Positions 1 through 22,793 of a stretch of 30,265 nt of DNA are shown piece by piece. The stretch covers positions 1 through 30,265 of the forward strand of contig CAYRBX010000001.1 of the NCBI GenBank assembly GCA_964422695.1, written 5' to 3'. The stretch comes from an uncultured Dehalococcoidia bacterium (lineage in GTDB: Bacteria; Chloroflexota; Dehalococcoidia; SZUA-161; CAYRBX01). A model generated the notes under the pieces. The model had not been told where the DNA came from and did no database searches. It worked only from the letters and a program-made list of their open reading frames with translations. How positions within the stretch are numbered: the first letter of the stretch is position 1; the number at the start of each line of letters is the position of its first letter. The position numbers were made by a program, and so were the translations under genes.

Positions 1-1377
<1,377 letters not shown>

Positions 1378-1408
1378 CAGACCCGGCAGAGACCCATTCG
1401 ATATTCGG

Positions 1409-1483
<75 letters not shown>

Positions 1484-9582: not shown

Positions 9583-10235
9583 GCTCTGAGAGAGGAGCTC
9601 TGTGGGATCTCGACGGGGTGATAGTCGACAGCGGCCCCTTCCATTTCCGAGCTTGGCGGAGGATCGCCGGGCTTCTGGGAAGAGATCTCGCCCCCGAGGA
9701 ATTCAGAGCTTCCTTCGGCCTTCGCAATGAGGACATCCTGCGCCGCTTCTTCGGGATCTCGGATCCCGAGAGAGCTTCGGAGCTCGCCCGGAGGAAAGAG
9801 GAATTCTTCCGGGAGGAGATAAGGGGAAAGATCCAGCCTCAGCCGGGAGCGATGGAGCTCCTTCGCCTCTTCGAAGATCTCGGTTTCGCTCAAGCTCTCG
9901 TCTCATCCACTCCTCGGGAGAACATAGATCTCATCCTCTCCGCTCTTGAGATCCGGGATTTCTTCTCGGCGATCATAAGCGGGGAGGATGTGAGGAGAGG
10001 AAAGCCGGATCCCGAGGGCTATCTTCTGGCCGCACGAAAGCTTGGAATCGCTCCGGAGAACTGCGTGGTTATAGAAGATGCCGTGGCCGGGGTGCAGGCC
10101 GCAAGAGCCGCGGGAATGAAATGCATCGCCGTCGCAACCACCTACCCTCCTGAAGCTTTAAAAGATGCGGATCTCGTCGTTCAAACTCTGAAGGAAGTGA
10201 ATTCCAAGATCTTAGAAGATCTCTTCGGGAGGTAG
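9579..10235 (+). CDS. HAD-family phosphatase (beta-phosphoglucomutase/CbbY-like)
   Basis: WDLDGVIVDS, VSST, GKPDPEGY, VIEDAVAGVQAA; ATG 9579 overlaps the nrdJ stop (ATGA). Confidence 0.92.
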   Translation: MSSERGALWDLDGVIVDSGPFHFRAWRRIAGLLGRDLAPEEFRASFGLRNEDILRRFFGISDPERASELARRKEEFFREEIRGKIQPQPGAMELLRLFEDLGFAQALVSSTPRENIDLILSALEIRDFFSAIISGEDVRRGKPDPEGYLLAARKLGIAPENCVVIEDAVAGVQAARAAGMKCIAVATTYPPEALKDADLVVQTLKEVNSKILEDLFGR

Positions 10236-10240
10236 AGATC

Positions 10241-10678
10241 GTGATTTTGAAAGCCTTTCCCATCGCTCCGGCTTCTTGGCATGCGCTTCTCCCCCTTCTT
10301 CTTCCCCTTTTTATTGTTGCGGGGGTGCTTGCTCCGATGATTTATTCGGTGAAGAATGCGAGAGCCGAAATAACTCCGGAAGGATTGCGAATAAGCGGCA
10401 CGATTTACCGAAAATACATACCAAAAGAGGAGATAAAGGAGGATGAAATCAAAATCTTGAACCTCAATATCGAAAAGGAATATCGCCCCAAAGCCCGAAC
10501 AAACGGCATCAGCCTTCCCGGGTGCAAGCAGGGCTGGTTCAAGCTCGAAAACGGAGAAAAAGCCCTTCTTTTCGTAACGGATTATTCGAAAGTGATTTAC
10601 ATCCCCACAAAGAAGAACTTCTCCCTTCTTTTATCCGTGGAAAATCCCGAAGAATTCATAGCTCTTCTCAAAACCTGA
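10241..10678 (+). CDS. Membrane-anchored bacterial PH-domain protein (bPH-like)
   Basis: N-terminal hydrophobic helix, then RTNGISLPGCKQGWFKLENGEKALLFVTD..VIYIPT..SLLLSVENPEEF typical of bPH proteins; GTG start with GGAGG. Confidence 0.7.
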   Translation: MILKAFPIAPASWHALLPLLLPLFIVAGVLAPMIYSVKNARAEITPEGLRISGTIYRKYIPKEEIKEDEIKILNLNIEKEYRPKARTNGISLPGCKQGWFKLENGEKALLFVTDYSKVIYIPTKKNFSLLLSVENPEEFIALLKT

Positions 10679-12230: not shown

Positions 12231-13373
12231 TCAAAAAGCTCCGAAGGTGAGCTTCTCTTTTATCCTCCATATCTTCTCCAAGAGCATCGCGCCGGCGAAG
12301 AAGGGAGAAGCATTTCTTCCCTCAAGGATAAGGCGAATGGAGAGCCGAAGGAGGGAAATGAGCAGCGATCTTTGAGGCTCTTTCACTTTTATCGCTTCTT
12401 TCCATCTCTCGCACCATTTGCAGAGGAAGCAATCGAAAGCGCATTTTCCCCTCTTGAAGAATTCGAGAAATCCCGCAAGCTTTCGAGCATCTAAGCTTAA
12501 AGCCGCGGCGAGGCCGTCAAAACTCCCCCAAGAGGGAGGAGAGCTCAAGATCTCCGCGAAATTGGGAGGGGATCTTCGCTCGGAATAAGCTCTGAGCGCT
12601 TTGAGAATTCTCGAAGTTGAAAATTCCCTTCCCGAGATCTTGAAATTCTCTATTCCGATTTTCTCGTATTCATGAAGATCTTCGGGGCGAATCCAAGGAG
12701 AGCGCAAAAGCCAGATAGGATCTTTGAGCTTTTCGAGAGCGCAGCGAAGATGAGAGAAGCCGCCCAGAAGGCGATGAGCATCTCTGACCGAATGAGAGGA
12801 GGAGGCGTAATCGGAGAGCCGAAATGGGCATGAGGGAAGGCAGGCATCGTTCACTATAACTTCAAGCTCGCATCTCGCCGCGCGAGCGAGCTTCTTCAAG
12901 GTCTGAAAATCGCGATTTCGCATAAAATCTATCGTCACGATATCGGCTCCGAGCTCCTCCCAGAATCTCAAAGCATTCGGCGTGTTCACGCAAGCTACGG
13001 TTGAGATCTTCACTTTGAGGGGGAAGCGCTTTTTTGCGATCTCACACAGCAGAGGATGAGAGACGATCACGTAATCCGCTTTGATTTCGGAAAGCCATTT
13101 GAGATGATCGAAGATCCCCTCCAATCCTTCCTCCGTATACTCTCGATTTCCGAGGCAAGGCCCTCCCATGGCGTAAGCGAATTCGAAGCCGGCTTTATGA
13201 GCTCTCTCCACAAATTCCGCCGCCTTCTCCTTTTCTATCTCCGGGATGATGCCCGAAGGTCTTCCCCCGCCCACGGGATCTCGGCGAAGGCTTCCGAAGA
13301 ACCCCCTCACCGGCCTTCCGAGAGAGGCCTCTATGAGCTCCTCCTTCCAATTGGCGGGAACCCAGAGCATCAC
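12231..13373 (-). CDS. U32-family Fe-S protein (UbiU/TrhP/RlhA superfamily), subfamily unassigned
   Basis: VGGGR, EFVERAHKAG.EF.Y..GGPCLGN, ADYVIVS.P, VKISTVA.VNT, EVIVNDACLPSCPFR, LRC, WIRPEDL, FKISGR; extra C-terminal CAFDCFLCKWC. Confidence 0.88.
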   Translation of the reverse strand: MMLWVPANWKEELIEASLGRPVRGFFGSLRRDPVGGGRPSGIIPEIEKEKAAEFVERAHKAGFEFAYAMGGPCLGNREYTEEGLEGIFDHLKWLSEIKADYVIVSHPLLCEIAKKRFPLKVKISTVACVNTPNALRFWEELGADIVTIDFMRNRDFQTLKKLARAARCELEVIVNDACLPSCPFRLSDYASSSHSVRDAHRLLGGFSHLRCALEKLKDPIWLLRSPWIRPEDLHEYEKIGIENFKISGREFSTSRILKALRAYSERRSPPNFAEILSSPPSWGSFDGLAAALSLDARKLAGFLEFFKRGKCAFDCFLCKWCERWKEAIKVKEPQRSLLISLLRLSIRLILEGRNASPFFAGAMLLEKIWRIKEKLTFGAF

Positions 13374-14122
13374 AATTGAAGGGGGATGGAGCGCTTCTTG
13401 AGATTCTCAAGGACGAAAGGATAAGGTTCGAGGTATTCGACTTCGATCTCCTCGGGGGAGATGCCCTCGGACTTGAGCTTCCTTGCGAGCATCTCAATTC
13501 CCGAAGCTCCGAAGGTCTCGAGCATCACGGCGGGCCAGGCGTTCACCCCGGCGGCGAGGAGCGCTTTCAAAGCTCTTATCGGAAATTCGAAGAACCTCCC
13601 GCAAGCCCCCGAGATCTTCTCGAAGCTCCGCTCATCCCATCCCTTTACGGAAATTCGAACGAAAAGCCTTCTGAATCGGGAGAGCTCATCGGCGAAATCC
13701 GGATGAGCCCCCAGAATAAAGCCGTTCGTCTCGAGAATGAAATCAAGAAACGGGTTTTCGGCGGAGATCACCTCGATGACCTTCAGGATATGCTCGAAGG
13801 ACTTCCTCCCCAAAATGGGCTCAGCTCCGCTCAATCTCACCTTGTTGAATCCCCGCTTCCCGCAGATGGCGAGAAGCCTTCTCGCAACCTCCTCCGGAGG
13901 GCAGAATTCGCCTCCGCACTCATCGGGCCTGAGGTTCCTCTCGTAATTCCAGCAGTAAGCGCACAGGAAGCAGCAGCCCACCATATCGGCGGTGGCGATC
14001 CCCCCGTAATACCTCGCCCCCCGGAACCTGTAATACTTCCTCCTCCCCCCTTTCATGACGATCTCCTCAACCTCCTCTGCGCGTTTGAGAGGATCGAAGG
14101 GGAATTCAAGCTCGCTCCTCAC
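13370..14122 (-). CDS. Radical SAM protein, archaeal-type (COG5014-like)
   Basis: RKYYRFRGARYYGGIATADMVGCCFLCAYCWN (CxxxCxxC), VRLSGAEP, FILETNG, VRISVKG. Confidence 0.88.
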   Translation of the reverse strand: MRSELEFPFDPLKRAEEVEEIVMKGGRRKYYRFRGARYYGGIATADMVGCCFLCAYCWNYERNLRPDECGGEFCPPEEVARRLLAICGKRGFNKVRLSGAEPILGRKSFEHILKVIEVISAENPFLDFILETNGFILGAHPDFADELSRFRRLFVRISVKGWDERSFEKISGACGRFFEFPIRALKALLAAGVNAWPAVMLETFGASGIEMLARKLKSEGISPEEIEVEYLEPYPFVLENLKKRSIPLQL

Positions 14123-14978
14123 AGATCTCCCTCAGCCCGCACTCCCCGCATCTCCTCCTCCGACAGTATAGCTTCTCCAAGATATAAGAGGCCGTTTGCA
14201 TCCAGCCGGCGAGCCGCCCGAACGCCTTTCTTGCGAGAAACGAAAGGCATTCCTCCCTCCCGGGGCAATGCGAACAGGGGAAGGATCTACAGAGCTTCGG
14301 ATCCCACGGCTTCTCCCAGGAGAGCATTCCGAGCTTCCTCATCGCCCTCTGAAAGTGAACGTCGGAGGGAGCGAAGAAAGTGGCATCCTTTCGGGAGAAG
14401 AGCAGATACGAAGTCGCGATCTTCGGACCTATACGAGGCCCCTGCAGGAGCTTCAAGCGAAGCTCCTCAGGGGTCAGGGAATCCTCCACGGGCTTGATCT
14501 CCCGAAGGTAGAAGGAGAGCTGCTCGGGGAGGTTTTTGAGCTGAAAGCTCCTTCCGGGAAGCTCCCGAAGATCCCCCTCCGAGATCCTCTTCACCCATCT
14601 CACCGTATTGGCGTGAAAATCGGTGTTCGCGGACAAAGCGACCGAGATGAAGATGAGCTCTCGATCGTAAGGATTCACCGCAAGCCCGAGATCTCCGAAT
14701 CTCTCAACAAGAAGGAGGGCTTTCTCCCTCACCTCCTCGGAGAGCTCCTCCAGATGCTCGAAGGGATCAAACCAAGCTCCCGAGAGGATAAAAGCCACAT
14801 TCGGATCCGGGCAATTCTCCACTTCAAGCGCGTCCTGACCTCTGCTCCTCATTCTGAGCTCCCGAAATGCGCCTCTTCTCTTCACCCACCATTCTCCCTC
14901 TTTCTCGAAGAGCGGAAGGGAGAAGGAGGAGAAGAGCGAAAGCTCGAGATCGAAATTCCTCCTTATCTCCAAAAGCAT
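14106..14978 (-). CDS. HhH-GPD superfamily (DNA glycosylase-like) protein with two Cys4 motifs
   Basis: HhH LLQGPRIGPKIATSYLLF with Lys; FFAPSDVHFQR with Asp; CRSFPCSHCPGREEC and YCRRRRCGECGLREIC. Confidence 0.75.
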   Translation of the reverse strand: MLLEIRRNFDLELSLFSSFSLPLFEKEGEWWVKRRGAFRELRMRSRGQDALEVENCPDPNVAFILSGAWFDPFEHLEELSEEVREKALLLVERFGDLGLAVNPYDRELIFISVALSANTDFHANTVRWVKRISEGDLRELPGRSFQLKNLPEQLSFYLREIKPVEDSLTPEELRLKLLQGPRIGPKIATSYLLFSRKDATFFAPSDVHFQRAMRKLGMLSWEKPWDPKLCRSFPCSHCPGREECLSFLARKAFGRLAGWMQTASYILEKLYCRRRRCGECGLREICEERA

Positions 14979-15008: not shown

Positions 15009-15401
15009 ATGAAGGTCGTAAGGAGAGAAGAGGTTTCGGCTTTCACGACGAAAGACGGATCTGAAATAAGAGAGCTTCTCGCCCCGAGGAATTCGGAGCT
15101 CAGAAATCTGAGCCTCGCCGAGGCGAGAGTTGAGCCGGGAGGAGAGACCGCGGAGCATTTTCACAAATCCTCGGATGAGATTTATTACATCCTCGAAGGA
15201 GAGGGGATCATGAGGATTGAAGGAGAAGAGCGGAAAGTGAGGCCGGGAGATGCGATCGCCATTCCCGCGGGAAGAAAGCATAAGATCAAAAACGATGGAG
15301 ATCGAGATCTCATCTTCCTCTGTTTCTGCGCTCCTTCTTACACTCACGAAGATACGATTATCACCGCTCCTCAGGGAAGGAGTTCGCAGCGAAGCTCGTA
15401 A
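15009..15401 (+). CDS. Cupin-domain protein
   Basis: TTKDGSEIRELL, SLAEARV, HFHKSSDEIYYILEGEG, IPAGRKHKIKN; SD GGAGGAG before ATG 15009. This is the real gene inside ORF-track 14196..15401. Confidence 0.9.
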   Translation: MKVVRREEVSAFTTKDGSEIRELLAPRNSELRNLSLAEARVEPGGETAEHFHKSSDEIYYILEGEGIMRIEGEERKVRPGDAIAIPAGRKHKIKNDGDRDLIFLCFCAPSYTHEDTIITAPQGRSSQRSS

Positions 15402-16471
15402 AGAAGTTGCGCCACCCCCTCCGGATCCCTTCTCAAAAAGAAGCGAGAGCATTCGAATTGTATTGCGACATCGAGGAATCCCTGCTCCACCTTCTCATGA
15501 AGCTTGAGGAGCTCTGAGGTTTTCCTTCCGGAGAAATGAAAGTTCATGGTGATCACCCTGATATCTCTGCTCTTCTCCAGTTCAAAGAGGGCTTTTCTTA
15601 TCTCCTCCCGCGTGTAATTCTCCACTTCAATTCCGTATAATCCCAATCCTTTTACGAGCGCTTGAATATCAAATCTCTCCCTGCTTGTGGGAGGTAAGGA
15701 GGAGGGATCGAGATCTTCTCTTTCCGGAGCAATCCACTCGAGAAATCTCAGAGCTCTTTTCGCGAAATCCCTTTTGTATTCCTCCGCTAAGGATTTAAAT
15801 CTCCGCCGGAATTTCATCTCCGCTCTCCTTACGATATCGAAGAAATCCTCAAGCGGCAGAAGGCCGAAATCTCCTATATCGACGACGGCTCCCAGAAGTC
15901 CGGTGCTGTGAATCGAAATCATAATCCTCTTGTGAGGTTTGAATTCATCTTTCCAAGCGCAGAGAGCCGCCAGTCCTCCCGTCCAAGAATCCATTTCCGC
16001 TTGAGGGAAGGGGATGTATTCATCGGGCTCTCGACGAACCTTCCCGCAATGAGGAGCGACGTAAATGGTTTTCGGCTCCTCTCCGAAGATGAAAGAGTAA
16101 AAGCGCTCGTAAATCCCCCTCTTGAGCTCATATTCCTGAGGATCTCTTGCCGGAAAAGCGTAAGTTCCTGTCCATCGACGATCGAGAAGAGCTTCGGGAA
16201 GGGCCTCATGATATTCCTGAGCTTCCTTGAGGGAGGGGAGAGCTCGATGGAAATCTATGCCGTATTTCCCCTCTTCGGGCTTATCATCTTGAGGCAATCT
16301 CGAAGCTGTGGAGAGGATGAGCCTTACTCCCTTTTTGCTCTCGAAGACCTCAAAACAGGGGTTTTGCTCCAAGATGCGGAATCTCTCCAGAAGCGCCGAT
16401 CTGGGGCCGAGATAAGCTCCATCCTCATCCTCCCGAACCAATTCCGGAATCTTCCCCCTTTTCGGGCTCAT
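15371..16471 (-). CDS. Hypothetical protein, probable N-formylglutamate amidohydrolase-like (Zn-exopeptidase fold)
   Basis: IYVAPHCG ... EMDSWTGGLA ... MISIHS ... VAIQFECSR match the order of the PHxG / D / HS / QxE motifs of FGase-like hydrolases; SD AGGAG overlaps the echF stop. Confidence 0.55.
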   Translation of the reverse strand: MSPKRGKIPELVREDEDGAYLGPRSALLERFRILEQNPCFEVFESKKGVRLILSTASRLPQDDKPEEGKYGIDFHRALPSLKEAQEYHEALPEALLDRRWTGTYAFPARDPQEYELKRGIYERFYSFIFGEEPKTIYVAPHCGKVRREPDEYIPFPQAEMDSWTGGLAALCAWKDEFKPHKRIMISIHSTGLLGAVVDIGDFGLLPLEDFFDIVRRAEMKFRRRFKSLAEEYKRDFAKRALRFLEWIAPEREDLDPSSLPPTSRERFDIQALVKGLGLYGIEVENYTREEIRKALFELEKSRDIRVITMNFHFSGRKTSELLKLHEKVEQGFLDVAIQFECSRFFLRRDPEGVAQLLYELRCELLP

Positions 16472-16480
16472 GAGAGGGGA

Positions 16481-16822
16481 TCAGCTCCTTCGAGGAGGAA
16501 CGTGCGTTTCGACTTTCTTCTCGTAATCGGGGGGATGGTAATGAGTATCCATGGTGATGGCTCCCGGAAGGCAGAATTCCACGCAAGTTCGGCAGTAAAT
16601 GCACTTGAAGGGATCGTAAGTGAGGCGCTTCCTCTCCGTATCGACTTCAATAGCTCCGGAAGGGCAAACCCGAGCGCAATCTCCGCAGAAATCGCAGCGC
16701 TCCGAATGGAAGATGAGCTTCCCCCGGGTCGCCGGAAACGGCTCTCTCTTCACGAACGGATAGCGTCTCGTAACAGGTCCTCTTAAGAGATTTCTGAATA
16801 AGGTCGGCAGCATCCAAGGCAT
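16481..16822 (-). CDS. echF: EchF/NuoI-like 2x[4Fe-4S] subunit
   Basis: GPVTRRYP, RGKL, CDFCGDCARVCP, CIYCRTCVEFC; ATG 16822 with SD AGGAGG. Confidence 0.88.
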   Translation of the reverse strand: MPWMLPTLFRNLLRGPVTRRYPFVKREPFPATRGKLIFHSERCDFCGDCARVCPSGAIEVDTERKRLTYDPFKCIYCRTCVEFCLPGAITMDTHYHPPDYEKKVETHVPPRRS

Positions 16823-16836
16823 CTTCTTCCTCCTCC

Positions 16837-17928
16837 TTACCTTTCTGTGCAGGCGATGCACGGATCGATGGAGAGGGTTATGACGGGAACGTCGGCGAGC
16901 TCGCATCCCGGAAGCATTACAAGCAGGGGCGGGATATTGGCGAAAGTGGGGGTTCTCACCTTCAATCTCTCAAGGTAGGGAGTTCCGTTCCCCTTGGCGT
17001 ACTCGAAGAGCTCTCCTCGAGGCTGCTCCACTCGCATGATGGCCTCTCCTTCCGGACATCCCTCCACCCGAACCATTATCTCCCTATCGTCCATCTTATC
17101 GATTCTGTCCAGAGCGGGGATTACGAGATCGAAGATGGATTGGTAGATCTCCCTTATTCGCACCAGAGTGCGGGCGTAGCTGTCGCAACCGTATTCCACC
17201 ACAGGCTCGAAGCCGAGCTCCCCGTAAGCCGCATAACCGGTCATTCGTGTATCCCAAGCCCACCCGCTTCCTCTGAGCGTGGGCCCCACCGCCCCCATCC
17301 TCCACGCATCCTCTTTGGGGAGAATCCCCTTCTCCACGGTTCTCGCCTTGATCGTGTAATCCCGGAGGAACAGATCCCTTATGGGATCCATGAGCTTCCT
17401 GAAGTCCTGCTCGAGCATTCGGCGCACGGCCTTGGACATCTCCCTGTCGATATCCCTTCTCACCCCTCCTATAACGCATGTGGATTGAATCACCCTCTGG
17501 CCGGAGGTCATCTCGAGGACATCCAAGATGATCTCCCTGATCCGCCAGATCTGCATGAAGGCGCTCTCGAAGCCGAGGGCGTCGGCGAGAAGCCCGAGCC
17601 ACAGGAGATGGCTGTGGGTTCTTGAAAGCTCGCTCCAGATAACGCGAAGGTATTTGGCGCGAGGAGGAACCTCAACACCCATCATCGTCTCTATGAGCTG
17701 GCAGTAGCAGAGAGCGTGAATGAAGCTGCAAATCCCGCATATGCGCTCGCAGAGGAAGACGTTCTGACGGAATCTATTCCTCTCAGCTCCCTTCTCGATT
17801 CCCCGATGAATGTATCCTATGATGGGAGTTACATTCACGACTTTCTCATCCTCGCACTCCAATTTCAGCTGGATGGGCTCGGGAAAGACCGGATGCTGCG
17901 GCCCGAAAGGCACTATAGTCCTTGCCAT
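16837..17928 (-). CDS. echE: Group 4 [NiFe]-hydrogenase large subunit, Ech type
   Basis: PFGPQHP, GYIHRGIEK, L1 ERICGICS, EQPRGE, RTPT, L2 DPCIACTER-stop; all four Ni-ligating Cys present and no cleavable C-terminal extension. ATG 17928 with SD GGAGGAG. Confidence 0.93.
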   Translation of the reverse strand: MARTIVPFGPQHPVFPEPIQLKLECEDEKVVNVTPIIGYIHRGIEKGAERNRFRQNVFLCERICGICSFIHALCYCQLIETMMGVEVPPRAKYLRVIWSELSRTHSHLLWLGLLADALGFESAFMQIWRIREIILDVLEMTSGQRVIQSTCVIGGVRRDIDREMSKAVRRMLEQDFRKLMDPIRDLFLRDYTIKARTVEKGILPKEDAWRMGAVGPTLRGSGWAWDTRMTGYAAYGELGFEPVVEYGCDSYARTLVRIREIYQSIFDLVIPALDRIDKMDDREIMVRVEGCPEGEAIMRVEQPRGELFEYAKGNGTPYLERLKVRTPTFANIPPLLVMLPGCELADVPVITLSIDPCIACTER

Positions 17929-17930
17929 CT

Positions 17931-19313
17931 TCACTCCTCCAGATCACATCTCCAGCATCTCCTCCCCTCATTCAGAGCTTCCTCCTCCGTGAGGCCTCGC
18001 TCCAGCTCCTCGGGGCCGAGCAGGCGAGGTCTCGGACGCTCAAGCTCTTTGAGCTTCTCCCTCTCGATGAAGGTGTAACGCCCTCTGGGCTCCGGGATCT
18101 CAAGCTCCTCCTCCAAGGTTCCCGTTCCGCCCAAGTACTTATCCACGGAGAGGGCGGCCTTGCGTCCCGACCCTATCGCGTGAACCACCGAAGTGGGGCC
18201 CGTGATGACATCTCCGGCGGCGAAAACGCCCTCCCTCGAGGTCGCCAGGGTTTCGGGATCGACCTCGATGGTCTCAAGCCCATCTCTTCGCGCCGCTGCG
18301 ACGCCGAGCTCCCTCAAAGCGCTCGGCCTTCCGGTGAGGGAGGAGACGACCGTGCCGTGAACAACTCCGGCGTGAGCGCCCAAAGCCAAGATTATAGCAT
18401 CGAAGCCTTGGGCGAAGAGCTTATCCAGAGAATCGACTTTGACGCCGGTGAGGATCTCCACTCCGAGCATTTTGATCTTGTTGATCTCATCGTCGAGAAC
18501 ATGCCTCGGAAGGCGCTTTTGGGATATGCCGTATCGCATTATCCCTCCGGGCTCGGGAAGGGCTTCGAAAATCGTCACCTTGTGCCCCAATTTGGCCAGG
18601 AAGAAAGCCGCGGTGAGCCCTGCGGGCCCGGATCCCACCACGGCCACCTTCTTGCCGGTGGGAGGCCGGATCGCCTTATCCGTCCACCTCCCCCGCTCAT
18701 ATGCGAAGCGCTTCAGGAGCTTTATCGCGATGGGCTGAGTGTGCCTTCCCTGGCGGCAGGCGTCCTCGCAGGGAGCGAAGCAAACCCAGCCGCAAACCCC
18801 CGGAAGCGGATTTGCGAGCCTTATGACTCCCAGAGCTTCCGAGTATCTCCCCTCGCCCACAAGCCGCACGTACCGCGGCACATCCACCCCCGCGGGGCAG
18901 GCTTTCGCGCATGGAGGGAGGAGGCGCATCGCCGGCTTCCTCTCGGGAACGGGCATGAGGATGGGGCGCTGAGGGCTCTCCTTGGCGAGCAGCAGGCCTC
19001 CTTTGTAATCGAGCACCCGACCTTCTATCCTGATTCCGGCGAATTCCATCATCTCGTTCTCGATGAGGGCGGCCGCAAGGTAAATGGGGGAGATGCTCGG
19101 AAGCTCCTCATCCTTTCCCACTTGAACGCGGATGTTCGTAACTCCTATCTCCTTATCGAATTCCTGCTCGAAATGGTAGATGACCTCGAATTTATCCCCC
19201 AGATCCACGCACGAAGCCGTGATGAAACGGTAATTCTCCTTGAAGAGCTTCCACACTTCAAGATGCAGCGTCTCTCTGGTCGCTCGGATTTCGGCTTTGA
19301 CCTGCCCTTTCAT
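17931..19313 (-). CDS. Fusion protein: EchD/NuoC-like domain, GltD/NfnB-type [4Fe-4S] domain and FAD-binding domain, lacking the NAD(P)H-binding domain
   Basis: N-terminal YRFITASCVDLGDKFEVIYHF...LPSISPIYLAAALIENEMMEFAGI (EchD/NuoC); PCAKACPAGVDVP..NPLPGVCGWVCFAPCEDAC; VAVVGSGPAGL; GVFAAGD; C-terminal EGRRCWRCD. ATG 19313 with SD GGAGG. Confidence 0.85.
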   Translation of the reverse strand: MKGQVKAEIRATRETLHLEVWKLFKENYRFITASCVDLGDKFEVIYHFEQEFDKEIGVTNIRVQVGKDEELPSISPIYLAAALIENEMMEFAGIRIEGRVLDYKGGLLLAKESPQRPILMPVPERKPAMRLLPPCAKACPAGVDVPRYVRLVGEGRYSEALGVIRLANPLPGVCGWVCFAPCEDACRQGRHTQPIAIKLLKRFAYERGRWTDKAIRPPTGKKVAVVGSGPAGLTAAFFLAKLGHKVTIFEALPEPGGIMRYGISQKRLPRHVLDDEINKIKMLGVEILTGVKVDSLDKLFAQGFDAIILALGAHAGVVHGTVVSSLTGRPSALRELGVAAARRDGLETIEVDPETLATSREGVFAAGDVITGPTSVVHAIGSGRKAALSVDKYLGGTGTLEEELEIPEPRGRYTFIEREKLKELERPRPRLLGPEELERGLTEEEALNEGRRCWRCDLEE

Positions 19314-19347
19314 CTCGCTCCTTCCTCCGCGCGGCATTCTCGGGATC

Positions 19348-19932
19348 TCAGAAGATCAGAGCTCTGGAGAGGGCGAATTTGGATTCGACGAGGCCCGTGG
19401 GGCAGAGCTCGAAACACTCCTTGCATTCGGCGCACACCTTCGCCGCTATCTCCGGAATGAACATGACATCCCTCTCCGTCCCCCGCCCCACGAATCCTAT
19501 CGCGTGAGCTCCCTTCACCTCGGCGCAATAGCGAACGCAGAGCCCGCAGAGAATGCAGAAAACGCCCTCCTTTTCGAACCTCACCCTCTCGACGCCGTAC
19601 TCGCGAGCAAGCGCGAGGAGCTTCTCCGAGCCCGGAGCGCGAGCCAGCATGAGCTCCAAGAGGATCTTCCGAATCCTCCTTATCTTCTCGGTGTTGGTGA
19701 GAACCTCAAGGCCGTCCTCAACGGGATAAACGCAGGCGACCACCGTTTGAGATCTCCCTCCCCGAACGATCTCCACCGAGCAGATGCGGCAGGCTCCGTA
19801 AGGCTCCAGCTTCTCGTGGTAGCAGAGGGTCGGAATCTCAATGCCGGCTTGCTTTGCGGCCTGAAGCAAAGTCATTCCCTTTTTGGCTTTCACCTCCCTG
19901 CCGTCTATCTTGAGCGTTACTTCCTCGCTCAT
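19348..19932 (-). CDS. Short NuoG/HydA-N-like Fe-S subunit ([2Fe-2S] + 2x[4Fe-4S])
   Basis: IPTLCYHEKLEPYGACRICSVE..VVAC; CILCGLCVRYC; CAECKECFELCPTG. No catalytic domain follows. Confidence 0.9.
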   Translation of the reverse strand: MSEEVTLKIDGREVKAKKGMTLLQAAKQAGIEIPTLCYHEKLEPYGACRICSVEIVRGGRSQTVVACVYPVEDGLEVLTNTEKIRRIRKILLELMLARAPGSEKLLALAREYGVERVRFEKEGVFCILCGLCVRYCAEVKGAHAIGFVGRGTERDVMFIPEIAAKVCAECKECFELCPTGLVESKFALSRALIF

Positions 19933-21857
19933 GCCTCTGCCCTCTCCCTTCGTATGATCCTCTCCTCCTCAGGAGGCGGAGGAGGAACCGGCTCTCCGGA
20001 GAGCTTTTTGACCGCGGCGAATCTCGGAGGACATACCTCCATACAAGTTCCGCACTTTATGCATTTCTCCTGAATGATGACGTGTACCTTGTTCTTCCCC
20101 CCGTCTATCGCTCCCGCCGGGCAGGCGCGCAGGCAGATCATGCAGGCCTGACATCTCTCCGGATCTATCCAGTAATTTACAAGAGCTTTGCATACTCCGG
20201 CGGGACATCTTCGATCTCTTATATGAGCTTCGTATTCGTCCCTGAAGTACCTCAATGTGGAGAGGATGGGATTGGCCGCGGTCCTTCCCAGAGCGCAGAG
20301 AGAGGCTTCGGAGAGAACCTCGCCGATCTCCTCAAGGAGCAGGATATCCTCCTCCGAGCCCTCTCCGGATCTTATCCTCTCCAGAATGCGAAGGGATTGC
20401 CTTATCCCCTCGCGACAGGGAACGCATTTCCCGCAGGATTCGCTCGCCAGGAAGTTGAGGAAGTACCAGGCGACATCCACCATGCACGTATCCTCATCCA
20501 TCACGATCATCCCTCCGGAGCCCATCATGGAGCCGAGCTTCGTGAGCTCATCGAAATCCACCGGCGTGTCCAAGTACTGCTCGGGAATCACCCCGCCGGA
20601 GGGGCCTCCGGTCTGAACGGCTTTGAATTTCTTCCCGTCTTTGATCCCCCCTCCGATCTTGTAGATGATATCCCTCAGGGTGATCCCCATGGGGACTTCG
20701 ATGAGGCCCGTGTTGTTCACCTTCCCCACGAGGGAGAAGATCTTGGTTCCGGGGCTCCCTTTGGTTCCGATGGAAGTGAACCAATCCGCCCCCCTGTTGA
20801 TGATCAAAGGAACGTTCGCCCACGTCTCCACATTATTGAGATTGGAGGGCTTCCCCCAAATCCCGCTTATGGAAGTTCGAATGTACTTGGGGCGGGGCTC
20901 CCCCACCTTCCCCTCTATCGCCGTCATGAGAGCGCTCGACTCCCCGGAGACGAAAGCGCCCGCCCCCCGATGCACCGTGACCTTGAAGCTGAATCCGGAT
21001 CCCAAGATGTTCTCGCCCAGAAGGCCGTATTCTTCGGCCTGTCGGATCGCCGTGAGCACGTTCTCCACGGCCAGAGGGTACTCCTGGCGGACGTAAATGA
21101 AGCCCTCATGAGCTCCTATGGCGTAAGCTCCGATGATAAGCCCTTCGAGCACCGAATGAGGATTTCCCTCCATCAAAGCTCTGTCCATGAAGGCCCCGGG
21201 GTCTCCCTCATCGCAATTGACGATCACATATTTGGGGGTTCCCGGAGCGTTGCGAGTCGTCTCCCACTTCCTTCCCGCGGGGAATCCGGCGCCGCCCCTC
21301 CCGCGCAGGTTGGCTTTCTTCACCTCCTCCAAGACCTGCTCCGGGGTCATATCGAATAGAGCTTTCGCCAGAGCCGAATACCCTCCCAGAGCTATGTAGT
21401 CCTCGATGTTCTTGGGATCGATCTTGGAGTTGTTGGCCAGAAGCAATCGCTGCTGGTGCTTGTAGAAGGGGATTTCGGACTCGTAAGCTATCCTCTCTCC
21501 TGTTTCCGGATCCTGATAGAGGAGGCGCTCCGCGATCTCCCCTCTTACAAGCGTTTTCTCCACGATCTCCGGAACATCTTCGGGCCGGACTTGCACGTAA
21601 TGAATTCCCTGAGGGTAGATGATGACGATCGTCCCCTTCTCGCAGAATCCCGGGCAGCCGGTCTCCTTTATATCCACCTTCCCCTCAAGGCCGCGCTTGG
21701 CGATCTCCTCCCGGAAGGCCTTGATCACATCTCTCGCTCCGAGCGCAAGACACCCCGTTCCGGCGCAAATCGCCGCGCAGGGCCTGTTGGGATCCCTCCG
21801 GCTTTGTATCTCCCTCCTGTAGTTCTCCAGATCCTCCCTCGAACTCAATCTCGGCAT
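19929..21857 (-). CDS. nuoF: NuoF/HydB-like FMN and NAD(P)H-binding subunit, long form
   Basis: N-terminal CAGTGC..GCPGFC; LRGRGGAGFP; NCDEGDPGAFMDR; GAGAFVSGESSAL; NNVET; GGPSGG; ESCGKCVPCREG..LCALG; DTC..HIRDRRCPAGVC; C-terminal CQACMICLRACP and CIKCGTCMEVCP. Confidence 0.95.
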   Translation of the reverse strand: MPRLSSREDLENYRREIQSRRDPNRPCAAICAGTGCLALGARDVIKAFREEIAKRGLEGKVDIKETGCPGFCEKGTIVIIYPQGIHYVQVRPEDVPEIVEKTLVRGEIAERLLYQDPETGERIAYESEIPFYKHQQRLLLANNSKIDPKNIEDYIALGGYSALAKALFDMTPEQVLEEVKKANLRGRGGAGFPAGRKWETTRNAPGTPKYVIVNCDEGDPGAFMDRALMEGNPHSVLEGLIIGAYAIGAHEGFIYVRQEYPLAVENVLTAIRQAEEYGLLGENILGSGFSFKVTVHRGAGAFVSGESSALMTAIEGKVGEPRPKYIRTSISGIWGKPSNLNNVETWANVPLIINRGADWFTSIGTKGSPGTKIFSLVGKVNNTGLIEVPMGITLRDIIYKIGGGIKDGKKFKAVQTGGPSGGVIPEQYLDTPVDFDELTKLGSMMGSGGMIVMDEDTCMVDVAWYFLNFLASESCGKCVPCREGIRQSLRILERIRSGEGSEEDILLLEEIGEVLSEASLCALGRTAANPILSTLRYFRDEYEAHIRDRRCPAGVCKALVNYWIDPERCQACMICLRACPAGAIDGGKNKVHVIIQEKCIKCGTCMEVCPPRFAAVKKLSGEPVPPPPPEEERIIRRERAEA

Positions 21858-21861
21858 CCCC

Positions 21862-22326
21862 CTACTCCTCCTCGTAACGTTTCAAGATCTCCTCCACTTT
21901 GGATACGGTCATCCCTCCATAATACGTCCCGTCGACGACCATAACGGGCCCCAGAGCGCAGCAGCCGAGGCAGTTTACGGTTTCGAGAGAGAAGCGCAGA
22001 TCGGAGCGCGTCTCCCCGGCTTTTATCCCGAGCACCTGCTCGACCCTCTCCAAGATCCTCGGAGATCCCCTCACATGACAGGCCGTTCCCATGCATACGG
22101 TGACGTGATGCTTCCCTTTGGGAACCAAGCTGAAGGCCTTGTAGAAGGTGGCGATGTGGTAAATTCGGGAGAGGGGGACTTTGAGCCTCTCGCTTATCCT
22201 CTTCAGGGCCTCCCGGGGAAGCCAGTTGAACTCCCTCTGAACCTCAAGGAGGATCTGGATGAGAGCGCTGGGATCGGCCTTGTAAGCGTCGATAATCCGA
22301 TCTACCTGCTCCAGCTCCGCGGTCAT
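21862..22326 (-). CDS. nuoE: NuoE/HydC-like [2Fe-2S] subunit
   Basis: LIQILLEVQ, ATFY, VCMGTACHVRG, VNCLGCCALGP. Confidence 0.95.
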   Translation of the reverse strand: MTAELEQVDRIIDAYKADPSALIQILLEVQREFNWLPREALKRISERLKVPLSRIYHIATFYKAFSLVPKGKHHVTVCMGTACHVRGSPRILERVEQVLGIKAGETRSDLRFSLETVNCLGCCALGPVMVVDGTYYGGMTVSKVEEILKRYEEE

Positions 22327-22369
22327 CGCCGCTCGACCTCCCTCCGAAGAGTTGAAAAAGCCCTCATAA

Positions 22370-22399
22370 AGTATTTCCGCAAGCGAGCGCCGCAGTCAA
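22370..22399 (-). promoter_or_regulatory. Putative promoter of the nuoE...echF operon
   Basis: Minus strand TTGACT (22399-22394), 18-nt spacer, AATACT (22375-22370). Confidence 0.45.
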
Positions 22400-22401
22400 T
22401 T

Positions 22402-22430
22402 TTGAAATTTCCCCTCCGGAGATCTACAAT
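22402..22430 (+). promoter_or_regulatory. Sigma70-type promoter of rsfS, predicted leaderless transcript
   Basis: TTGAAA (22402-22407), 17-nt spacer, TACAAT (22425-22430); ATG at 22437. Confidence 0.72.
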
Positions 22431-22436
22431 GAACTG

Positions 22437-22793
22437 ATGTCGAGGGATAAGAGGGCTTTGGAGATCGCCCGCCGCGCCGCGAACGCGGCTCAGGAGAAGC
22501 AGGCTTCGGATATCTTCCTCCTCGATCTCTCGGGAACTTGCCCCTTTGCGGATTTCTTCCTCATCTGCACCGGAGATAACAAGCGCCATATGGAGGCCAT
22601 AAGGGAGGAGATAGAGCGAGCTCTTCTGGAGGAGGGCGTCCGCCTCCTGAGAGACGAGGGGGAGGGGGATTCGGGCTGGATCCTCATGGATTTCGGAGAT
22701 CTCATCGTTCATATCTTCTCCCCCGAGCAGCGCTCCTTCTATCGGCTGGAGGAGCTGTGGAGCAATGCCTCCCCCGTTCTGAGGATCTTATGA
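22437..22793 (+). CDS. rsfS: Ribosome silencing factor RsfS (Iojap/YbeB)
   Basis: [52 protein letters not shown]. Confidence 0.96.

Follow-up and report, generated by a model that had tools for sequence, protein, structure and literature searches.

Six adjacent genes of a Dehalococcoidia bacterium, probably for the peripheral arm of a Bfu-linked, Ech-type [NiFe]-hydrogenase, with no echABC alongside

How is a hydrogenase to be assembled when the genes for its large subunit and for what looks like a complete electron-bifurcating module lie together in one tight block, and those for its small subunit and membrane base are not beside them? The question is raised by positions 16481-22326 of one complete contig of an NCBI metagenome-assembled genome (MAG) of an uncultured Dehalococcoidia bacterium; that contig, 30,265 nucleotides (nt) long, is the whole stretch of DNA analysed and is referred to here as the window. 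The segment is filled by six intact, co-oriented minus-strand open reading frames (ORFs) in the order nuoE-nuoF-nuoG'-fusion-echE-echF, where nuoG' is a short nuoG and the fusion gene joins an EchD/NuoC domain to a GltD/NfnB-like part. To judge by sequence, what they encode is probably the peripheral, cytoplasmic arm of a Bfu-linked [NiFe]-hydrogenase of Ech type that belongs to the 'Mbh-Bfu' family; EchA and EchB, which sit in the membrane, and EchC, which holds the proximal [4Fe-4S] cluster, would then be supplied in trans and join the six proteins in one complex. The window is a new, divergent member of a known, biochemically uncharacterised family, with a gene arrangement that lacks echABC in cis.

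What marks the module as one of the bifurcating type? Much of the answer lies in the NuoF/HydB/BfuB-like subunit (642 amino acids (aa); 19929..21857, minus strand like the other five), recognised by its Pfam domains, motifs and matches in the Protein Data Bank. Its Pfam order is a weak N-terminal 2Fe-2S_thioredx, Complex1_51K (PF01512), SLBB (PF10531), NADH_4Fe-4S (PF10589) and two Fer4 (PF00037). The N-terminal [2Fe-2S] cluster has the ligands C31-x4-C36 and C68-x3-C72, the flavin mononucleotide (FMN)/NAD(H) domain has GRGGAGF at 186, GAFM at 221 and GGPSG at 417, and with the DTC at 456 comes the C458/H545/C551/C556 site (H545-x5-C551-x4-C556); there follow an N3-type [4Fe-4S] cluster (CGKCVPC at 475; C475/C478/C481/C521) and a C-terminal 2x[4Fe-4S] domain with CxxCxxCxxxCP at 569 and 599. 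Every motif by which the original prediction had recognised the long HydB architecture is located, and its contention that such features mark bifurcating HydB subunits agrees with the best solved relatives being just those subunits: the NiFe-HydB of Acetomicrobium mobile comes first (7T2R_B, E 6e-252, 841 bits), followed by the HydB of Thermoanaerobacter kivui (8A6T_B, 773 bits), Acetobacterium woodii (7Q4V_B, 735) and Thermotoga maritima (7P5H_B, 675). Identity is 67-70% to the NuoF of two nine-gene clusters, that of Dehalococcoides mccartyi (locus L001) and L094, and ~56% to neighbouring NuoF genes of the Nfn-Bfu type. Its partner, the NuoE/HydC/BfuC-like subunit (154 aa; 21862..22326; PF01257, 2Fe-2S_thioredx, E 4.8e-54), has one [2Fe-2S] cluster (C78-x4-C83 ... 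C119-x2-C122, the last ligand being C122 or C123) and is 59% identical to its D. mccartyi counterpart. The five metal sites of BfuB and the sixth, in NuoE (BfuC), are all present by motif, and it is the conserved BfuBC core with these sites that defines the Bfu family (PMC9304861). By these motifs and relatives the NuoF-like protein is a bona fide HydB/BfuB.

Might NuoEFG' nonetheless be just the N-module of a non-bifurcating, complex I-like, NADH-linked Ech, with no obligatory coupling to ferredoxin at BfuB? The gene set does mirror that of complex I, with NuoEFG as N-module, homologues of the Q-module proteins NuoC, NuoD and NuoI and, in relatives, homologues of NuoB, NuoH and NuoL; besides, it is EchF that is already the conventional site of ferredoxin entry in ordinary Ech. 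However, the N-terminal [2Fe-2S], the C/H/C/C site and the C-terminal 2x[4Fe-4S] of the window's NuoF are lacking in non-bifurcating NuoF, and its scores of about 675-840 bits against HydB contrast with about 350-376 against complex I Nqo1/NuoF (376 for Nqo1, 2FUG_1), so that an enzyme of this kind is unlikely.

The third Bfu subunit is a short NuoG/HydA-N-terminal/BfuA-like protein (194 aa; 19348..19932; Fer2_4, PF13510, plus a Fer4 dicluster). It has one [2Fe-2S], A1 (C37/C48/C51/C67), and two CxxCxxCxxxC [4Fe-4S] motifs (126/129/132/136 and 167/170/173/177), which we infer to correspond to A2 and A4; the H-x3-C-x2-C motif of a His-ligated A3, A5 and a catalytic domain are all lacking. By this make-up it matches the 'Type 2' BfuA of BfuB clade 45, and a BfuA without catalytic domain needs a partner that supplies the third substrate (PMC9304861). 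None of the six proteins has an NCBIfam model of its own, and NuoE alone barely passes a cut-off.

Is the would-be partner truly of the Ech type? The group 4 [NiFe]-hydrogenase large subunit, EchE (365 aa; 16837..17934; Complex1_49kDa, NiFeSe_Hases), has RICGICSFIH, with CGICSFIH at 66-73, and ends in DPCIACTER at 357-365 followed directly by the stop codon, with no C-terminal extension. The NiFe-binding motifs are reportedly, after Vignais and Billoud, L1 C[GS][ILV]C[AGNS]xxH and L2 [DE][PL]CxxCxx[HR], and EchE has both. It is about 70% identical to the EchE of Desulfotomaculum, Desulforudis, Ammonifex and D. mccartyi, and its nearest relatives are annotated as Ech subunit E; the best solved ones are MbhL (6CFW) and HycE (7Z0S), with no group 3 subunit. 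The earlier assignment to an Ech-type group 4 large subunit is therefore upheld, and by motif and relationship EchE is a genuine Ech large subunit, of subgroup 4e as we infer from 70-76% identity to the EchE of canonical echABCDEF clusters of Bacillota. Among 123 EchE proteins it retains 120 of the 122 columns that are >=97% conserved, which is within the normal range, so its build is still that of a partner for EchC and EchB. EchF (113 aa; 16481..16822; NuoI-like, a 2x[4Fe-4S] Fer4 dicluster with two CxxCxxCxxxC motifs) was called as an ORF of 16481-16906, and its start at 16822 (MPWMLP...) is fixed by tblastn with the EchF of L094 (53%) and L001 (50%).

Between the two sets of subunits stands the EchD/NuoC ~ GltD/NfnB-like fusion (17931..19337; Complex1_30kDa, Fer4_20, Pyr_redox_2). 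Its true start is most likely the ATG at 19313, which is preceded by GGAGGAAGGAG, a strong Shine-Dalgarno sequence, and which gives 460 aa. An N-terminal EchD/NuoC domain is followed by a GltD/NfnB-like 2x[4Fe-4S] domain, a flavin adenine dinucleotide (FAD) Rossmann domain and the end RCWRCDLEE; the FAD motifs are GSGPAG at 235, FE258A and GVFAAGD376, at positions almost all invariant in the two alignments made (A1 and A2). What has gone is the Rossmann domain that binds NAD(P)H: compared with the 592-aa class of homologues there is a clean loss of about 132 aa (alignment A1), and the block with GxRVxVIGGGNAAIDAAR is missing from the window's fusion as from all others of its class, while the iron-sulfur (FeS) domain, the FAD motifs and the C-terminal RCWRCDLE are all retained in the ~460-aa class. 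Both by sequence and by the fold of an AlphaFold2 model (predicted local distance difference test score, pLDDT, 79; Foldseek) the flavin part is nearest to NfnA/StnA of Nfn-ABC/StnABC (by sequence, their GltD-like domain; 9BOV, 9N5U, 8OH5) and then to NfnB. The sole pyridine-nucleotide site is in NuoF. Two flavin sites had been foreseen; FMN in NuoF and the FAD motifs of the fusion are indeed there, but the second module lacks the NAD(P)H-binding domain. The fusions of sibling strains are 98-99% identical, and the next best relatives about 55-60%.

How closely is this deletion tied to the presence of the Bfu genes? Homologues of the fusion come in three length classes, of ~460, 592 and 723 aa. 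A motif-targeted scan of metagenome contigs gave 56 loci, which were classified by tblastn. Class I fusions, which have 592 aa or, where an N-terminal receiver domain precedes the rest, 723 aa, always come after echABC and never beside nuoEFG (about 34 loci). Class II, the truncated fusion, has nuoG' directly upstream in 19/19 loci; the full-length fusion never has. In a neighbour-joining tree of 123 fusions the 43 of class II, the window's included, form one clade, and the class I fusion is its sister group. As class II is monophyletic and always accompanied by nuoG', losing the NAD(P)H domain and gaining BfuABC went hand in hand and happened a single time. The pattern suggests that the pyridine-nucleotide function passed to the Bfu module and that this docks at the GltD-like FeS/FAD module. 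That the EchD fusion has precisely lost its NAD(P)H domain whenever BfuABC is present is a clear evolutionary marker, and points to the place at which Bfu plugs into the Ech chain.

Class I Ech (echABC-echD~complete GltD-echEF, no NuoEFG) is itself abundant, at L006, L104, L106-L139, L147, L152 and L153 and as the first cluster of L098 (6682-13204). In sequence it resembles an NADPH-linked energy-converting hydrogenase, and the literature search found no description of it. Its 723-aa subclass has a response-regulator receiver domain (PF00072) fused ahead of the EchD domain (proteins P0126, P0129, P0133 and others; loci L106, L107, L114, L117, L118 and L123), which is unusual for a structural hydrogenase subunit. 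Separate NuoE-NuoF-NuoG~GltD clusters, of the Nfn-Bfu/StnABC type, are carried by the same genomes, at L010 18648-21389, L126 17769-20092, L127 14534-17311 and L150 5549-10225; that the NuoG~GltD of L150 ends in RCWRCDLE, like the Ech fusions, points to a common origin of the GltD module.

The nine-gene context in which class II fusions are at home was described some time ago. In D. mccartyi the order is echA-echB-echC-nuoE-nuoF(640 aa)-nuoG'(197)-echD~gltD'(461)-echE-echF (L001), which bears out the statement in the original prediction that Dehalococcoides ech clusters also contain nuoEFG-like genes; other full nine-gene clusters are L094/95, L142, L143 and L148/149. Schut et al. (2022) predicted the product of the D. 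mccartyi cluster to be an 'Mbh-Bfu' with a Type 2 Bfu (BfuB clade 45) and an additional flavin site of unknown function in one subunit, noted its co-expression in strain 195, and considered reduced ferredoxin and NADH, formed from H2, to be its probable products (PMC9304861). It was still hypothetical in a 2025 paper (PMC12318220), and searches of solved structures gave none of an Mbh-Bfu complex. The inference of a bifurcating Ech complex thus fits the motifs and relatives, and is a rediscovery of a published hypothesis, second flavin site included: the architecture was published in 2022, and the gene cluster was known before that. As to whether an identical architecture had already been characterised, the same one is predicted in D. 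mccartyi, but it has never been purified.

Could the operon instead hold the genes of two unrelated enzymes, with an independent NADH:ferredoxin module of the BfuABC type beside parts of an ordinary Ech? No organism has yet given physical evidence that ties the Bfu subunits to those of Ech. Against this, the genes are interleaved in differing orders, echABC-nuoEFG'-echDEF at L001 and echABC-nuoG'-echDEF-nuoEF at L100, and there is a perfect correlation between NuoEFG' and an EchD fusion without NAD(P)H domain, two facts that argue strongly against separate enzymes; the need of a BfuA without catalytic domain for a third-substrate partner tells in the same direction (PMC9304861). Two enzymes are thus most improbable. 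That L100 has the same nine genes in another order, echABC-nuoG'-echD'EF-nuoEF, argues for one complex.

In that one complex, electrons from H2 would pass from the NiFe site to EchC and EchF and on to the FeS clusters, possibly also the FAD, of the fusion, from whose module they would go by way of BfuA to the FMN/FeS centre of BfuB. There they would be split, reversibly, between NAD+ and ferredoxin, and ion translocation by EchAB would shift the equilibrium, for instance so as to allow formation of reduced ferredoxin and NADH at very low H2. If the family works as predicted, one machine would combine flavin/FeS-based electron bifurcation with ion translocation, which might explain where Dehalococcoidia get their reduced ferredoxin and NADH when H2 is present only in traces.

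The six genes probably form one operon. The junctions between them are all small, being overlaps or gaps of <=34 nt, and the spacing first reported for six adjacent minus-strand genes is confirmed given two choices of start: 34 nt ahead of the fusion with ATG 19313, and 14 nt between echE and echF with 16822. Elsewhere neighbouring genes are 4 nt apart in one case, overlap by 4 nt in another, and in the third either overlap by 4 nt or leave 2 nt between them. The 5' end of the operon is in a 110-nt divergent intergenic region between rsfS (plus strand) and nuoE, where the Shine-Dalgarno-like GGAGGGAGG lies ~10 nt ahead of the nuoE ATG. A consensus scan places a promoter-like site, TTGACT and AATACT 18 nt apart, at 22370..22399 on the minus strand; it is picked out by position alone, such sites being in the promoter/terminator scan not above chance in the region.

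What, then, of the small subunit and the membrane base? The original prediction spoke of a complex built on an Ech core and did not mention that EchC, EchA and EchB are absent from the contig, so for the locus alone that description fails: without these three the Ech core cannot be made by it. Among the 29 contig ORFs scanned with Pfam there was no EchC/NuoB (PF01058), EchB/NuoH (PF00146) or EchA/NuoL (PF00361), and tblastn of four EchC queries against the window gave nothing better than E 0.26. To our knowledge the proximal [4Fe-4S] cluster sits in EchC in every Ech/Mbh-type enzyme. Replacement of EchC by another protein was considered and rejected, there being neither a PF01058 match nor a tblastn trace. 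Misassembly at the rsfS/nuoE junction was likewise rejected, as the junction is also in L096 and L097. Most likely, on the strength of the echE sequence, echABC is encoded elsewhere in the MAG, for EchE shows no relaxed constraint; and the window being a whole contig of that MAG, other contigs can hold the three genes.

Several points weigh against a working trans-assembled enzyme of the Mbh-Bfu type. With EchA, EchB and EchC of three clusters as tblastn queries the contig has no trace, remnant, scar or pseudogene of the three genes, and the arrangement ndk-rsfS(opposite strand)-nuoE is reproduced in two independent further assemblies, L096 and L097. The EchD domain (4/36 conserved columns changed) and EchF (4/43) are both slightly more divergent than is typical, in comparison with a reference set dominated by one clade. 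No member of the Mbh-Bfu family has been purified; for the family at large bifurcation and ion pumping are predictions, as is the part played by the FAD. Lastly, in related Dehalococcoidia echC and echF are repeatedly lost or frameshifted and echE is once truncated, and such repeated decay means that the echABC-less state can also signify decay or changed function.

The decay in relatives is specific in kind. At L092/L093 a deletion scar joins EchA residues 1-79 to EchC residues 120-140, and echF is frameshifted (L092 6667-7000 and 12479-12819). At L098/L010, L105 and L111 an intact class I echABC-D(592)-E-F is followed by ~4 kb of regulators, a frameshifted echC, nuoEFG' and echD(462), with the damage at L098 17426-17835, L010 12481-12805, L105 6877-7288 and L111 11597-11955; L098/L010 have in addition echE and a frameshifted echF, and the contigs of L105 and L111 end within echD(462). 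At L145 echE is cut at residue 109 (10233-10559). None of this damage reaches nuoE, nuoF, nuoG' or the fusion, which are intact throughout; in L092 and L010, the two degraded lineages tested, the ratio of non-synonymous to synonymous substitution rates (dN/dS) is 0.05-0.20.

Two alternatives draw on this pattern. The first sees in the window a decaying or repurposed remnant, a hydrogenase dead since the loss of echABC, whose BfuABC and fusion are kept by selection for some other NADH/ferredoxin-linked reaction and whose echE and echF have not yet been mutated. The independently degraded versions just listed, and the survival in each of the same four genes, with such low dN/dS in the two lineages tested, speak for it. 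Unlike those relatives, however, the window has no deletion scar or pseudogene and both echE and echF are intact; EchE has all the NiFe ligands besides 120 of the 122 near-invariant columns, and the strain-level changes in echE are mostly synonymous (~7 synonymous : 3 non-synonymous). Over all six ORFs, compared with sibling strains that are 99.3% identical, there are ~14 synonymous and 6 conservative non-synonymous changes. A remnant therefore seems improbable to us. The second alternative is that a free-standing arm, produced on its own, docks onto an EchABC base from elsewhere, perhaps one shared with a second Ech whose EchD bears a whole, NADPH-binding GltD module, and that swapping of arms couples H2 to NADPH or to NAD+ plus ferredoxin. 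It is prompted by the pairing, at L098/L010, L105 and L111, of an intact class I cluster with a nuoEFG'-echD(462) arm whose echC (in L098/L010 also echF) is frameshifted, and by the purifying selection under which the arm genes of those relatives remain; though conceivable, it too we hold to be unlikely.

A soluble hydrogenase without canonical small subunit is a more extreme version of that docking arm. Here the six subunits would form an H2:NAD+/ferredoxin enzyme with neither EchC nor membrane arm, in which FeS clusters carried by the GltD-like part of the fusion would stand in for the proximal cluster. In complex I-type enzymes the EchD position adjoins the large subunit (6CFW, 4HEA), and by analogy the fusion would put two [4Fe-4S] clusters on that neighbour; moreover, the operon is self-contained in having a promoter-like site and Shine-Dalgarno sequences, and echABC is absent in three assemblies. 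But every [NiFe]-hydrogenase that we know of uses a small subunit with the proximal cluster, the window's EchE is 70-76% identical to EchE proteins partnered by EchC with no drift at the interface, and D. mccartyi, L094, L100 and L142 have EchC alongside the same fusion. Such an enzyme is very unlikely, and an arm of the Mbh-Bfu type with EchABC supplied in trans is still the reading that we prefer.

What does the window add? By itself it opens no new question, but it does bring a distant member of the family, useful for defining conserved residues and as an alternative source for expression, and evidence that the arm genes are separable from echABC. Three things encountered with the related loci may be new: the precise deletion of the NAD(P)H domain by which the Bfu-linked class can be told, how abundant an Ech of class I, with a complete GltD module on its EchD, is, and the repeated loss of echC and echF in relatives.

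The surroundings of the six genes can be told briefly. The 5' end of the contig is inside a 23S rRNA gene (model positions 1568-2925; window 1-1483, plus strand), and what comes 30 nt after it is tRNA-Met (CAT), not 5S rRNA. The other genes are mostly housekeeping ones (mraW, ftsA, ftsZ, class II ribonucleotide reductase, ndk, rsfS, gatCA), and the closest named relatives of GatA are from Chloroflexi/Dehalococcoidia MAGs, at 70-74% identity, in keeping with an origin in Chloroflexota. Nine nt after echF, and possibly co-transcribed with it, is an ORF of 366 aa (15371..16471, minus strand) with no Pfam or NCBIfam match; a comparison with 1.84 billion representative proteins turned up just 48 relatives. 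The ORF is conserved in sibling strains and absent from all other Ech loci fetched, and so is not a conserved part of the system. As a substitute for EchC it was rejected, having five scattered Cys and no family. Three overlapping minus-strand genes at 12231-14978, for a protein of 290 aa (no Pfam family, a weak ogg-like NCBIfam match), a radical SAM protein (250 aa) and a peptidase U32 family protein (380 aa), look like a small operon of unassigned function, on which a plus-strand cupin gene at about 15009-15401 converges. Directly upstream of nuoE, an ORF of 129 aa (22323-22712, minus strand) with no family lies antisense to rsfS (22437-22793, plus strand) and is almost certainly not a gene.

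How does the window stand among the systems already known? With the [FeFe] HydABC enzymes (7P5H, 7Q4V, 8A6T) it has in common HydB and HydC, homologous to its NuoF and NuoE, with all metal-site motifs; in them, however, HydA bears the H-cluster, whereas the window's BfuA is reduced to 194 aa and it is a separate NiFe subunit to which we assign the H2 chemistry. The A. mobile NiFe-HydABCSL (7T2R, 7T30) also has the same BfuBC core, but is soluble, with an A3 cluster in its BfuA (Type 3), which the window's BfuA lacks, and its hydrogenase module is not of the complex I/Ech type, whereas the window's EchE matches MbhL, HycE and NuoD; the statement that the described bifurcating NiFe enzyme has no Ech-type large subunit was accurate. 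Canonical Ech (echABCDEF, group 4e) and Pyrococcus furiosus MBH (6CFW) have homologues of EchE, EchF and the EchD domain, but in canonical Ech EchD is free and of about 115-125 aa, there is no NuoEFG, and echABC is always beside echDEF in the loci examined. NfnABC/StnABC (9BOV, 9N5U, 8OH5) and NfnB (4YLF, 5JCA) have a GltD-like part akin to that of the window's fusion; their NADP(H) site is a second Rossmann domain, the one deleted in the window, and in NfnABC/StnABC the module is fused to BfuA rather than to EchD. Class I Ech shares the EchD~GltD fusion and its C-terminal motif, yet differs in that its NAD(P)H domain is still there, NuoEFG is missing and echABC is always in cis. Closest of all is the D. 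mccartyi Mbh-Bfu, of the same phylum: its cluster starts with echA-echB-echC, where the window has none of the three and a divergent rsfS before nuoE, but the window's six proteins are collinear with its genes 4-9 and 48-70% identical to their products, with the same short BfuA and the same EchD fusion that has an extra flavin site and no NAD(P)H domain.

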